From contig JAYUUN010000083.1 of NCBI GenBank assembly GCA_043754535.1, positions 1 to 32,638 on the forward strand: 32,638 nucleotides of DNA, written 5' to 3'. Shown piece by piece: positions 30,001 to 32,638 of the stretch. The stretch comes from Chloroflexota bacterium (GTDB taxonomy: Bacteria > Chloroflexota > Chloroflexia > QHBQ01). A program made the position numbers. Position 1 is the stretch's first letter. Each line of letters opens with the position of its first letter.

Positions 30001-32638
30001 CATCAGGGTGCTAAAAAGTCGGCGAGACGGACAAGTAGTGGGCTGGCAGTGCCTCCGCAGGCTACCCAGAAAGGGCCAGGAGTCGAACCTGAACTTCGAA
30101 TGAAGTGGTAAGCCAACCGCAGCGGCCCATCCAATTGAGCGGGGCAGTAGCCCCCTTACGCGGCAGATTTTGGTGCTAGTTGCAGGCTAGCCAGCTTGGT
30201 CAGGCGGACAAGGGGCGGATCAGGGCATTGCTCGCCACGAGCATCTCAACCCTTGCGGGTCGGGCGGGACTCAACCCCCGCTGCTTACAGCTGCTCTGCC
30301 GTTGAGCTGCGCTACCTTGCGGCAACGGTGGCGAATCGAACGCCACAACCCACTGTCAAATTAGATAACCTGGTCACATCGGCCCGTCTGACCACGCTGG
30401 CTGCGTGCGCTAGAGAAGATCGGTTGGGGTAGTCGCTGTCGTCAGGTAGACTAGCTGTGTTCATGGGACGCTGGAGTTGAACCAGCGCGTCCACCTTGCG
30501 GTGGTCGCTTGCCACTGATAACCCATCAACTTCGGCCCACCTGACGACGGCGGCTGCCGTCTTTGCTGCTTGATGCTGTAATTTGCTTCCGACAAGAACC
30601 TCGCTGCAAGTTAACCACCTGCTGGCTCGCACCAGCAGGCGGGTGCATTCAACCACTCTGCCACGTCATCCCCAGCGGGCGACGGCGGGATTCGAACCCG
30701 CGAGGCTGTTCTGTGACCAGCCTACCGAAGCTAACTTTGCTGGCTAGCCAGATAAACTGCGGCACTGGCAAGGTGAAGCGGACAAGTGGCGCAAATGGGA
30801 TAGCTTCCACCAGGATCGCTCCTGGCTTCTGCAAGCTGCTCTACCACTGAGCTACCTCCCCCAGGTTGGTGGTGGAGAGAGGGAATCGAACCCCCGACCA
30901 GCCGATTAAGAGTCGGTAACCCACGTACTAGCGGCCCACTTCACCTCGTCAGTACCCGATCAGTTGTAGCCTACTCTAGCCTAGACAGTCGGACAAGAAT
31001 CGCGCTTGACTATGCTCCCCTGCGGAGCTACACCCCCATGATGGGTGGGGGTGCGTGGACTCGAACCTGATAACCGAACGACAGCGGCCCACCTGTCTGC
31101 GCCAGAGGTAGTCAGAGGGGTGTGAGGGCAAGTTGTCGCTGCTGGGGCCTTGACGATAACCCAACAACTTCGGCCCTCTCACCACAATTTTAGCTTAAAG
31201 TCGGCAAATGGTCAATAGGGATGAAGGTGTATTTGTGCTACGCCCACAGCAGTAGACTGCCGCTTGCTCACTCACTTGCACAGTCATTACGTCCGAAGTG
31301 GCAAAAAGGTTGCATGATCTGCGCCATTTGTCGCAATCTGCGACCAAAGTGGCGAGTCCAGTCGCTGGTGCAACCGACCCGCTGTCTACACTGTGGCCGG
31401 GCCGCAAGTTGCAGCCCTACGCCCCAATCTTCCTGAACTTGTCGTAGCGGGCATCAAGCAGGCGGCGCAAGCCAGCTGGAGTGCGCCAATCATGCTGGTC
31501 AAGGGCAGCCAGGTGGCGGCTGATCGCGGCAGCGACTGTCTCTACGGTAGCGAGCGGGTCTTTGTGCGCGCCGCCTACTGGCTCGGCCAGCACCTCGTCA
31601 ACTATGCCAAATTGGAGCAGATCGGGGGCGGTGATCCGCATCCGCTCGGCGGCAATGGGGGCTTGCTTCGCATCGTTCCAAAGGATCGCGGCGGCGGCTT
31701 CGGGTGAGGCGACGCTGTAGATCGCGTTCTCCAACATCAACACGCGGTCGGCCACCCCAATCGCCAATGCGCCGCCGCTGCCCCCTTCGCCAACGACCAC
31801 TGCGACCAGGGGGATTGGCAGGCCCAGCATGGTCTGGATCGCTTCGGCAATAGCCAGGGCCATACCGCGCTCCTCCGATTGCAGGCTGGGGCTGGCTCCT
31901 GCCGTGTCGATCAGGGTGACGAGCGGGAAGCCAAACTTGGCGGCGTGCAGCATCAGCCGCTGGGCCTTACGGTATCCCTCTGGTAGCGGCATCCCAAAAT
32001 TGCGGGCGATGCTCTCCTTGGTGTCGCGCCCCTTCTGCTGACCGATGAACATCACTGCGCTGCCCGCAAAAGTACCGAGGCCGCCGATGATCGCCGGGTC
32101 GTCACCGTACATACGGTCGCCGTGCAGTTCGATAAAGTCGGGGGCCATCACCTTGATGTAGTCTAGGGTATGCGGTCGTTCGGGGTGGCGGGCCGTCTGC
32201 ACCCGCGCCCACTGCGGGCTATCGTGGCTCAAGACTGCTCTCCATTCGGGCTGGTGTGCGACAGGAGGCTGCTGGTTGCCAGGCCGCCGCTGCTACGGTT
32301 GTAGAAGCGGAGCAGGCGGGCCACCTGCCCGCGCAATTCGCGGCGCGAGAGGACCAGATCGATCATGCCATGCTCAAGCAAGAACTCAGCGGTCTGGAAG
32401 CCAGCGGGCAGCTTCTGGCGGATCGTCTGCTCGATCACGCGGGGGCCAGCGAAGCCGACTAGTGCGCCCGGCTCGGCCATGATCACGTCGGCTATTGTAG
32501 CGTAGCTGGCAGTTACGCCGCCAAAGCAGGGGTCGGTGAGCAGGGAGATGTAGGGCAGCCCTGCGCTGGCAAGGCGGTTGAGGGTGGCTGTTGTCTTCGC
32601 CATCTGCATCAGCGAGTAAATACCCTCGTGCATCCGCG

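Follow-up and report, generated by a model that had tools for sequence, protein, structure and literature searches.

What the DNA between rsr, the gene for the Ro60 orthologue, and its upstream neighbour encodes is the question raised by this locus of a Chloroflexota bacterium (GCA_043754535.1), where about 1.2 kb would otherwise remain an empty gap in the annotation. Bacterial Y RNAs, as defined by binding to Rsr and by an accumulation that depends on it, have been studied as one or two per species, with the role of their tRNA-like domain left open (Chen 2014, PMC4201824). The same paper describes how YrlA and YrlB of M. smegmatis and Yrn1 and Yrn2 of D. radiodurans arise by cleavage of polycistronic precursors encoded upstream of rsr and are held by Rsr in free form, and reports a Ro-binding element near the 5' end, GNCGAAN0-1G, that resembles the GGUCCGA of animal Y RNAs. 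Its Table S1 contains no rows for Chloroflexi. We analyzed a window of 32,638 nt, positions 1 to 32,638 of contig JAYUUN010000083.1, for which an earlier note had proposed seven structured units on the rsr strand. Seven such modules, here named A to G in the direction of transcription, are indeed found, spanning positions 30018-31184. The 1.2 kb between a promoter at 31215-31187 and rsr is very probably a polycistronic Y RNA gene array.

The rsr locus and its upstream gap

The rsr gene (28314-29987, minus strand) encodes a Ro60 orthologue with a TROVE ring and a vWA domain (Pfam TROVE, 4.6e-49; vWA_Ro60, 2.2e-69). Its ATG start is at 29987, with the Shine-Dalgarno sequence GGGAGGTGG 5 nt before it, and the far border of the upstream gap is formed by an accA-like gene at 31417; the earlier note had given both positions. 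No Pfam family was matched at E <= 0.01 by any of five ORFs scanned in the gap (69-114 aa) or by a 77-aa ORF behind rsr. Upstream of rsr, at distances of 31-1197 nt, all seven modules share the minus strand with the Ro60 orthologue and fall within the range of about 4 kb used by Chen 2014. A run of five U residues and the Shine-Dalgarno sequence follow directly 3' of module G. The genome encodes PNPase (991.5 bits). RtcB (PF01139) was not found in the genome, an absence that is not proven because the genome is 88.9% complete, and no rtcBA genes stand beside rsr; the locus is not of the rsr-rtcBA type.

A sigma70-like promoter, TTGACC-17-TAAAAT (31187..31215, minus strand, 10 of 12 matches), is the sole promoter-like site in the interval 29800-31600, for which shuffled sequences average 0.3 sites, and it agrees with the single promoter that had been placed ahead of the modules. 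In genome G036, of the same genus, both hexamers are identical and the spacer differs at 4 of its 17 bases. Terminator-like sites were not found in 29800-31600, including the interval between the array and rsr. Transcription would start at about 31178-31182, within the first bases of the module A stem. A single transcript would then run from the foot of module A through all seven modules and probably on into rsr, and nucleases would cut it and trim it back to the terminal stems.

The Ro handle

The motif GGGCCG-N(9-10)-G[GC]TTA[TC]C occurs six times in the window, and these are the only six occurrences on both strands of the whole 3,872,131-base genome. They lie at 31176, 31090, 30937, 30538, 30385 and 30128, all on the minus strand of the gap, which bears out the proposal of a GGGCCG-type terminal stem in six modules. 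Each of these handles has a 3' partner strand of the form YTWGYCY, which reads CTTGTCCG in modules B, C, F and G, CTTGCCC in A and CTAGTCT in E. Module D has neither GGGCCG, as had been stated before, nor a paired 3' strand, and thus no recognisable Ro handle. The YUAY element is present in six of the seven modules. The motif of Chen 2014, GNCGAAN0-1G, occurs in two of the six handles, those of A and E (both GCCGAAG), and at the same site B, C and G read GCCGCUR and F reads GCCGAUG.

The handle retains both strands of a bulged helix, as in the Y RNAs of Deinococcus and animals. Modules A, B, C, E, F and G would present one such helix, with 5' GGGC-C-G..., 3' ...YUWGYCY and then GGUUAYC, and the Ro60 ring, whose gene lies just downstream, would dock on it, a role suggested by its resemblance to the helix that binds Ro in Y RNAs of Deinococcus, Xenopus and nematodes. 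The bulged helix GGGCCGA...CUUGYCC, with one bulged C, followed by GGGUUAUC, is shared with animal Y RNAs and nematode sbRNA (RF01656). With RF01656, a Y RNA homologue, modules A (33.2 bits, E 5e-4) and E (26.1 bits) give full-length alignments on the minus strand, both below the cut-off of 38 bits, and mini-Y RNAs of three related loci exceed it (L058, 40.5; L083, 39.4; L092, 38.4). Unlike animal Y RNAs, the window modules are bacterial and probably polycistronic, stand behind a sigma70-type promoter and mostly contain tRNA-like inserts, and A and E remain under the RF01656 cut-off.

The individual modules

Module A (31118..31184; this and all further modules on the minus strand) is a 67-nt mini Y RNA. 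It consists of a lower stem, a GGGC/GCCC helix with a bulged C, a 9-bp upper stem (GUUGUUGGG/CCCAGCAGC) and UUAUC, with no tRNA-like part, and is a bare hairpin Y RNA of the YrlB or Yrn2 kind. With a covariance model, R1, it scores 62.1 bits, but A is itself a seed of R1. Module B (30983..31098) has the handle GGGCCG...CUUGUCCG on a 5-bp lower stem, and encloses a T-loop whose stem is weak (31054-31070, 3/5 pairs), an acceptor-like hairpin (31031-31053, 7/7) and a D-arm-like hairpin. It is the fourth best R1 match of the window (13.3 bits, E 0.41).

Module C (30770..30947) carries the handle, a fully paired lower stem (10/10 bp) and a permuted class-I-like tRNA domain, in which a T arm (30879-30895, 5/5 pairs) is followed by a closed acceptor hairpin (30858-30878, 6/7), a canonical D arm, GUAGCUCAGUGGUAGAGCA, and then two small hairpins. 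Module D (30583..30769), the borders of which are soft, is a permuted class-II-like tRNA mimic. It comprises a long hairpin resembling a variable arm, a T arm (30685-30701, 5/5), a closed acceptor hairpin (30667-30684, 6/7), a GUGGCAGAGUGGUUGAAUGCAC-type D arm and a long closed hairpin.

In module E (30438..30548) the handle again stands on a 10/10-bp lower stem; its 3' strand is CUAGUCU and its 5' strand nearly copies that of A. It contains a GCAA-capped hairpin and a T arm (30470-30486, 5/5), with no acceptor and no D arm. Module E, which is not among the seeds of R1, scores 34.3 bits with it (E 1.4e-5 in the window, 0.0016 genome-wide). Module F (30198..30393) has the handle GGGCCG...CUUGUCCG and a permuted tRNA-like domain with a T arm (30329-30345, 5/5), an acceptor hairpin (30309-30328, 6/7 pairs as scanned, 7/7 by eye after a shift of one base, with a GCAA loop), the D arm AGCUCAACGGCAGAGC and further hairpins after it, one of them T-arm-like. 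Module G (30018..30137) has the same GGGCCG...CUUGUCCG handle on a short lower stem, with a small hairpin, a T arm (30076-30092, 5/5) and, where the acceptor and D arm would be, two short hairpins; it is the third best R1 match of the window (17.9 bits, E 0.041).

Spacers of about 20-60 nt separate the modules. In the minimum free energy fold the ends of each of the seven pair with one another, as had been claimed, and the stability of these folds against shuffles is uneven, with z-scores of -3.8 for A, -1.8 for B, -2.3 for C, -2.2 for D, -5.6 for E, -3.0 for F and -1.3 for G. None of 200 shuffles was as stable as the native fold for either A or E. Module G is marginal, with a z-score of -1.3 and an R1 E value of 0.041.

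tRNA-like domains and Rfam models

The order of elements in YrlA, i.e. T arm, closed acceptor hairpin and D arm, is found in C, D and F, nearly in B, and not in A, E or G. Two full permuted tRNA-like domains had been counted previously; there are three, together with the near-complete one of B. YrlA-type, in the sense of having a permuted tRNA-like domain, applies only to C, D and F, and nearly to B. T stems with 5/5 pairs occur in C, D, E, F and G, and the acceptor hairpins of B, C, D and F form 6-7 of 7 pairs. Of 66 genome matches to GGTTC[AG]A[ATC][TC]C, a T-arm motif, 27 fall inside tRNA or tmRNA genes called by ARAGORN and 39 outside; four of those outside are in the array, the same number as counted before.

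The Rfam YrlA model (RF02553) has a gathering threshold of 69 bits, which no module reaches. Where a single sub-threshold match had been noted there are two on the minus strand, module C (32.2 bits, E 3.6e-4, model positions 24-84) and module F (21.8 bits, E 0.35). Across 22 related loci, 12 of the order and 10 of other phyla, the model gave no match at its gathering threshold. The Rfam YrlA model misses the Y RNA family behind the array. The best match of the Rfam tRNA model (RF00005), at 28.3 bits with a cut-off of 29, joins the D arm of C to the T arm of D (30677-30861) across a 101-nt insert. A canonical tRNA identity was rejected, as ARAGORN calls no tRNA gene in 29000-32000 and RF00005 stays under its cut-off. 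YrlA RNAs carry tRNA-type modifications (pseudouridine 55 and dihydrouridine) and in M. smegmatis are cut by RNase P and given a CCA end; the 7-bp acceptor-like stems of B and F would suit an RNase P substrate.

Covariation

Covariation, named as lacking in the earlier note, was counted in 28 mini-Y RNAs from 25 loci plus the window, and the handle helices do covary. Handle cells were paired in 82.7% of cases, compared with 38.6-47.1% when the partners were slid. Changes on both sides were seen in 124 cells against 53.2 +/- 6.0 in shuffles, none of 500 reaching 124, and double changes fell in 15 of 23 handle pairs; of the two helices, helix 1 is biased upward in these counts because the seeds were chosen by a partner finder that rewards lower-stem pairing, and helix 2 played no part in the choice. 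These alignment-based counts replaced a permutation of lower-stem pairing over 223 handles, in which the own 5' flank (mean 1.80) was only weakly separated from that of another module (0.34) and a score of at least 6 was reached by 14.8% of own and 4.5% of other flanks, open and closed forms and short stems having been mixed.

Built from the 28 mini-Y RNAs, R1 places A, E, G and B as the top four of 35 window matches, and over the whole genome at E <= 1 it finds A and E only. The long inserts of C (8.2 bits) and F (8.7 bits) reduce these two to partial matches. When 34 full-length open modules were placed in one alignment, the mean column identity was 38% and the interiors could not be aligned; the interiors differ from module to module.

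Conservation within the genus and in independent contigs

Compared with G036, the modules differ at 46 of 782 sites and the third codon positions of rsr at 83 of 558 (Fisher p 5.6e-8). Modules and spacers do not differ significantly against the same genome (46/782, 5.9%, versus 15/161, 9.3%; p 0.11). Divergence is low in C (3.5%), F (5.2%) and G (2.5%, the lowest of the modules), and the 5' half of D differs at 5 of 89 sites. In module B, 17 of 113 aligned bases are substituted (15.0 per 100 nt), about as many as the 14.9 for third codon positions of rsr, and the module looks as if it were drifting. With this 15% divergence, a z-score of -1.8, a T stem of 3/5 pairs and an R1 E value of 0.41, B is the weakest module. 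The UUUAUC of D is UUGAUC in G036, and module E and the 3' half of D are absent there, so that E and D are dispensable in that genome.

Contigs of three other DNA studies span 29800-31500 unbroken with 4-5 differences and keep all seven modules. An ice metatranscriptome run (X12) yielded a 179-nt contig identical to 30203-30380, wholly inside module F, from which strand and ends are not readable. DNA can occur in RNA libraries, which limits what this contig over F conveys. The run has no contig over rsr or over modules other than F, which is not evidence of absence.

Related rsr loci

Rows of this kind are common. Among 69 related rsr loci the number of handles per locus has a median of 3, with at least five in 16 loci and seven in three. 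Seven handles are therefore the top of a broad distribution and not unique; the array is real and large, but not exceptional. Within 2.5 kb upstream of rsr in these loci, all 169 occurrences of the strict motif are on the rsr strand and none on the other, and R1 matches in 75 loci fall on the rsr strand in 129 of 131 cases. The family to which the array belongs is spread over Chloroflexota, Armatimonadota, Verrucomicrobiota and other phyla. Many relatives have a handle-bearing mini-Y 50-130 nt ahead of the rsr start.

Of 40 genomes of the order that were searched, 19 have rsr, and 16 of 37 do when the unpublished G002, G003 and G027 are set aside; the earlier figure of 11/17 came from another sample. 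In the 37 published genomes rsr and R1 matches occur together in 13, R1 alone in one, rsr alone in three and neither in 20; including the three unpublished genomes these numbers become 16, 1, 3 and 20.

In sister genera the same handle sits inside unpermuted tRNA-shaped RNAs, of which 23 units were found in 11 genomes of the order. Their acceptor stems are 99.4% paired, with double changes in 6 of 7 pairs. This closed form is marked by YUUGCCY-N3-7 right before GGGCCG, a mark present in none of the six window handles, and the same-genus locus L033 has closed handles in 0 of 5. At least five same-strand tRNA genes lie within 6 kb upstream of rsr in 33 of 68 related loci. The presence of the handle in unpermuted tRNA-shaped RNAs, and of rsr loci behind tRNA arrays, is more unusual than the array itself.

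Comparison with known Y RNA systems

Like YrlA and YrlB of Salmonella Typhimurium and M. smegmatis (PMC4201824), the modules are located beside rsr on the rsr strand. In C, D and F, and nearly in B, the strands of the Ro stem enclose a T arm, a closed acceptor-like hairpin and a D arm in the same order as in YrlA, YUAY follows the handle in both, and A is similar to YrlB, the second Y RNA, of hairpin type. The two Y RNAs of M. smegmatis are encoded upstream of rsr and cut from one precursor (PMC4201824). The window has seven modules instead of two. According to the same account only the 5' Ro strand is recognisable in YrlA, whereas the window keeps both strands. At 174-196 nt the window modules are also longer than YrlA, and they have extra hairpins, and one domain is class-II-like. 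Further differences from YrlA and YrlB are that GNCGAAN0-1G is found in just two of six handles, that the Rfam score is 32.2 of 69 bits, and that rtcBA is not beside rsr.

In D. radiodurans, Yrn1, Yrn2 and RNAs a, b and d are upstream of rsr in a polycistronic precursor with tRNA-Asp (PMC4201824). As in the window, that locus has both strands of a metazoan-like Ro helix, several RNAs with T arms and no rtc operon. However, the canonical handle is described for two of its five RNAs as compared with six in the window, and the tRNA-like part of Yrn1 has the opposite orientation of T and D arms (PMC4201824). The Yrl1 and Yrl2 RNAs of Thermus phage phiLo, also upstream of a Ro60 gene, were found by structure and a CGAA motif (PMC12135203). 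In that work both RNAs bound Ro60 and, with host PNPase, assembled into a RYPER-like complex. Unlike the window, the phage locus has two RNAs and no array.

Alternative explanations

In favour of a Y RNA gene array in the gap are a motif confined to this one place, helices that covary in relatives, an association with rsr that holds across phyla, and independent assemblies in which the array is intact. The earlier description of a co-oriented, Y RNA-type row before rsr that expands a known kind of locus is supported. We find it hardly credible that the motifs are chance or non-RNA repeats, such as functionless remnants of a dead tRNA array. Several relatives do have true tRNA arrays at this place and ARAGORN finds no tRNA in the window gap, but all six genome-wide motif matches fall in the array, the strand split is 169 to 0 over 69 loci of several phyla, the helices covary and divergence is well under the third-codon rate. 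It is very improbable, too, that the functional units are tRNA-shaped, each leading from the acceptor 5' strand and D arm of one module across the handle region into the T arm and acceptor 3' strand of its neighbour, to be cut out by RNase P and RNase Z. Such units are strongly supported in the order (23 in 11 genomes, with 99.4% acceptor pairing and double changes in 6 of 7 pairs), and the RF00005 match of 28.3 bits (cut-off 29) spans just such a junction, from the D arm of C to the T arm of D. In the window, however, the acceptor strands fold back on themselves around loops of 4-10 nt, making 6-7 of 7 pairs, the handles are open on lower stems of up to 10/10 pairs with spacers of about 20-60 nt, and the closed-form mark YUUGCCY-N3-7 is in none of six handles, nor are any of the five handles of L033 closed.

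Two further readings concern how the array would work. That it acts mainly in cis, as a structured leader of the rsr mRNA in which Rsr binds its own transcript to set rsr expression, appears unlikely, although one promoter with no terminator-like site between array and rsr, the U5 run and Shine-Dalgarno sequence directly after module G, and the many relatives with a mini-Y 50-130 nt before the rsr start would fit it. The Y RNAs of M. smegmatis and D. radiodurans are processed and Rsr-bound as free RNAs (PMC4201824), and the RNA-library contig lies over F and not over rsr, the latter being a weak argument. The cis-leader and free Y RNA readings are mutually compatible. A partly functional array, with B and D (perhaps E) as decaying duplicates beside four or five working Y RNAs, is possible, if not the reading we favour. 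The divergence of B, 15.0 per 100 nt, compares with 14.9 for rsr third codon positions and with 3.5, 2.5 and 5.2 in C, G and F, and the T stem of B has 3/5 pairs; D is without GGGCCG, its YUAY is altered in G036, and G036 has lost the 3' half of D and all of E. Yet D is conserved in its 5' half (5/89 sites) and has kept T arm, acceptor hairpin and D arm intact, E leads in fold z-score as well as in independent model score, and the contigs of three other studies keep all seven modules with 4-5 differences. B and D may be decaying copies.

Possible roles and the relation to tRNA arrays

Within the probable Y RNA array, the distal ends differ: a bare hairpin in A, a T arm only in E, and permuted tRNA-like domains, which are of class-I type in C, F and B and of class-II type in D. 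One Ro60 would thus be given several different adaptors. By analogy with Deinococcus and Salmonella, these adaptors would tether Ro60 to partners such as PNPase and gate its cavity in stress RNA surveillance. One Ro60 gene would thereby be served by up to seven Y-type RNAs sharing a single predicted docking stem. Varied distal domains on a constant handle offer a natural panel for asking what the distal domain recruits.

The tRNA-shaped forms in sister genera and the tRNA arrays around rsr hint at a testable link between Ro60 and tRNA metabolism. We tentatively raise the idea, which we consider more doubtful than not, that Y RNAs and tRNAs are two wirings of one gene family, interconverting by circular permutation in rsr-linked tRNA arrays. 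In the genus of the window a permuted tRNA mimic carries the handle at its open end. In the sister genera the handle takes the place of the anticodon loop in a tRNA-shaped RNA that has an open 7-bp acceptor stem and could be processed by RNase P and RNase Z. If the idea is true, the seven modules would be a set of Ro60 adaptors (class-I-like, class-II-like, T arm alone and bare hairpin) and the locus a combinatorial RNP system linked to the supply or the surveillance of tRNA.

No paper tying bacterial tRNA arrays to rsr or Y RNAs was found in our literature search, the nearest being a report on archaeal tRNA clusters, 20 of 29 of which contain a TROVE gene (Morgado and Vicente 2019, PMC6333295). 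The bacterial relatives considered here are similar (33/68). In contrast to the archaeal clusters, the window has its rsr without a canonical tRNA gene, and the passage of PMC6333295 on these clusters does not mention Y RNAs. Several relatives have true tRNA arrays where the window has Y RNA modules, and the tRNA-shaped units of the sister genera often stand at the end of 14-22 canonical tRNA genes.

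Array of RNA modules upstream of rsr

The Ro60 orthologue rsr (28314–29987, minus strand; TROVE 4.6e-49, Ro60 vWA 2.2e-69), whose product has its closest named relatives in uncultured Chloroflexia MAGs, is separated by a 1.4-kb gap from an upstream accA-like gene on the same strand, ending at 31417. Within this gap GGGCCG-N9-10-G[GC]TTA[TC]C was found six times on the minus strand, and the motif is absent from the rest of the window and the rest of the 3,872,131-base genome on both strands. Downstream of every copy lies a partner strand (CTTGTCCG in modules B, C, F and G, CTTGCCC in A and CTAGTCT in E), and the bases flanking motif and partner pair with each other in a lower stem of 4–10 bp. 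Motif and partner together make up the handle, a putative Ro60-docking bulged helix. Because the motif is confined to the gap genome-wide and each copy has its partner, the row of RNA modules before rsr described in an earlier note is real and far beyond chance.

The sole promoter-like site of the gap, TTGACC-17-TAAAAT, is located at 31215–31187 on the minus strand. ARAGORN predicted no tRNA in the gap, no terminator-like site was found there, and none of the five gap ORFs scanned matched a Pfam family. A run of five U at 30013–30017, which separates module G from the Shine-Dalgarno sequence of rsr, was not called as a terminator and could be a weak stop or processing site.

DNA contigs from three other studies (sequencing runs X5, X7 and X9) hold 29800–31500 in one piece with 4–5 differences, so assembly error does not account for the array or its module E. 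From an ice metatranscriptome (X12) comes a 179-nt contig identical to 30203–30380, entirely within F, which is compatible with a stable F RNA while not proving its strand, its ends or even transcription. No X12 contig covering rsr was found.

Anatomy of the modules

Module A is a 67-nt hairpin (31118–31184) built from a lower stem, a GGGC/GCCC helix containing a bulged C, and a 9-bp upper stem, after which comes UUAUC. Module E consists of handle, capped hairpin and T arm, and G of handle, T arm and two short hairpins. The Rfam nematode stem-bulge RNAs, the worm homologue of Y RNAs, align end to end with A (33.2 bits) and E (26.1 bits), below the cut-off of 38. Modules C, D and F contain a T arm (stem 5/5 pairs), a 7-nt acceptor-like strand self-closed by a short loop (6/7 pairs) and a D arm, the permuted order that passages of Chen 2014 (PMC4201824) give as defining YrlA. 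Rfam YrlA matches C at 32.2 bits (E 3.6e-4) and F at 21.8 bits, with a cut-off of 69. Module B is laid out like C, D and F except that its T stem is poor (3/5 pairs). Module D lacks the handle, and from its sequence the D arm and long hairpin 5' of its T arm look like those of a class-II tRNA. Fold z-scores ranged from -5.6 (E) to -1.3 (G).

No described YrlA is as large as module F, in which three hairpins at 30247–30292 follow the D arm: a short capped one, a further T-arm-like one (GCGGG-GGUUGAGU-CCCGC) and one with a GCAA cap. The Rfam tRNA model matches 30677–30861 at 28.3 bits (cut-off 29), joining the D arm of C to the T arm of D across a 101-nt insert. The leader of D (30750–30771), UUGCC-AGU-GCCG...UUUAUC, resembles a reduced handle of the closed form, the form set in place of an anticodon loop. 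Together C and D may be a relic of the switch between the two wirings.

Covariation and conservation

We aligned 28 A-type mini-Y RNAs found in the window and at 25 related rsr loci. In the two proposed helices 82.7% of cells pair, compared with 38.6–47.1% with the 3' partners shifted by 1–3 columns. Both-side changes occur in 124 cells against 53.2 +/- 6.0 in shuffles (0/500 reach 124), and double changes are seen at 15/23 pairs. The finder that chose the seeds rewards pairing in the lower stem and thereby favours helix 1; helix 2 played no part in the selection, and 7/9 of its pairs show double changes. A covariance model of this alignment, R1, was run on the window without filters and gave 35 hits, led by A (62.1 bits, a seed), E (34.3, E 1.4e-5), G (17.9, E 0.041) and B (13.3, E 0.41), with the best unrelated hit at 12.1 bits. 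C and F gave only partial hits because of inserts exceeding 100 nt. Genome-wide, A and E alone pass E <= 1.

Among 40 genomes of the order, including the unpublished G002, G003 and G027, 19 contain rsr and 17 have R1 hits; without those three, 13 have both, one R1 only, three rsr only and 20 neither, counts that are not independent since the genomes are kin. The same-genus genome G036 carries the array at 93% identity (1001/1075 aligned bases), with both promoter hexamers intact and four spacer bases changed. Its modules have diverged from those of the window at 46/782 sites versus 83/558 rsr third codon positions (p 5.6e-8), B being the sole module to diverge at the third-codon rate; relative to the spacers (15/161) the modules show no significant gain in conservation (p 0.11). 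Missing from G036 are 216 nt corresponding to 30467–30682, a stretch that begins on the 3' side of the T arm of D and reaches the 3' side of that of E; it looks as if the sequence between these T arms had been deleted. What remains is a D/E hybrid in which the T arm of D runs into the 3' end of E and no terminal stem matches.

Across 69 rsr loci from several phyla, each with at least 1 kb of upstream sequence, a search reaching up to 2.5 kb upstream found the strict handle motif on the rsr strand 169 times and on the opposite strand not once. A relaxed motif has a median of 3 per locus, with at least five in 16 loci, at least six in 5 and seven in 3. By this distribution such rows are common, and that of the window, where six of seven modules bear a handle, falls near the top of the range.

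One Chloroflexia locus, L034, has no handle upstream of rsr; its R1 hits (7932–8001 and 9785–9852) lie downstream on the opposite strand, the only ones among 131 not on the rsr strand. The mini-Y RNAs that directly precede rsr at L058:5429–5497 (40.5 bits), L083:5878–5947 (39.4) and L092:3610–3679 (38.4) pass the nematode stem-bulge gathering score of 38, so standard Rfam annotation would assign a worm RNA family to these bacterial RNAs.

Proposed function

From sequence, conserved structure and linkage, and by analogy with known systems, we infer that one precursor would arise from the promoter at 31215–31187, starting in the foot of A, and would be trimmed to Rsr-protected stems. The product would be up to six Rsr-binding RNAs with differing distal domains, through which Rsr would be linked to partners such as PNPase, as passages of Chen 2014 (PMC4201824) describe for Deinococcus and Salmonella. 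PNPase is present in the window's genome; RtcB was not found in it. The modules presumably work like YrlA/YrlB and Yrn1/Yrn2, yet they fail the Rfam YrlA threshold. They also differ in that both helix strands are kept, GNCGAA occurs in just 2/6 handles, and the modules are larger, one apparently a class-II-like mimic. In Table S1 of Chen 2014 each Ro gene has a single YrlA, and no row is from Chloroflexi.

tRNA-shaped units and tRNA arrays in related genomes

In sister genera the handle is closed by a 3–4-nt loop and placed at the anticodon-loop position of a tRNA-shaped, Y-like RNA whose acceptor stem is open. These units, about 105–130 nt long (e.g. within L022:287–731, G012), run in the order open 7-bp acceptor stem, D arm, closed handle hairpin (YUUGCCY-N3-4-GGGCCG-N10-GGUUAYC, replacing the anticodon loop), V hairpin and T arm, a circular permutation of the window's modules. 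In an alignment of 23 units from 11 genomes (G007, G010, G011, G012, G021, G022, G024, G029, G030, G031 and G035) pairing is 92.0% versus 38.5–57.9% when slid; acceptor stems are 99.4% paired, with double changes in 6/7 pairs. The Rfam tRNA model scores the units at 40–57 bits. By a rough rule, the closed form accounts for 42/220 handles of the wider set. A G3-U70 wobble, the alanylation identity element also known from tmRNA, is found in the acceptor stem of 6/23 units (columns 3 and 133), and an encoded A-CCA follows at least one (L022:287–413).

The rsr genes of this clade are usually embedded in same-strand arrays of canonical tRNA genes, e.g. at L026:2192–4759 (G024), L032, L035, L053, L055–L057, L060, L061 and others. 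ARAGORN placed tRNA genes on the rsr strand versus the other at 392 to 1 upstream and 217 to 1 downstream over 68 loci, 33 of which have at least five upstream; the largest number is 22 in 6 kb. Beside rsr in the window's genome there is no canonical tRNA gene. A linkage of TROVE genes to tRNA clusters is noted for archaea in passages of PMC6333295; literature searches found none for bacteria. At L031 (G021), some 1.6 kb before rsr and immediately beyond the tRNA-shaped units, a group II intron domain match (1567–1666, 65.5 bits) adjoins a tRNA-Pro gene (1446–1522).
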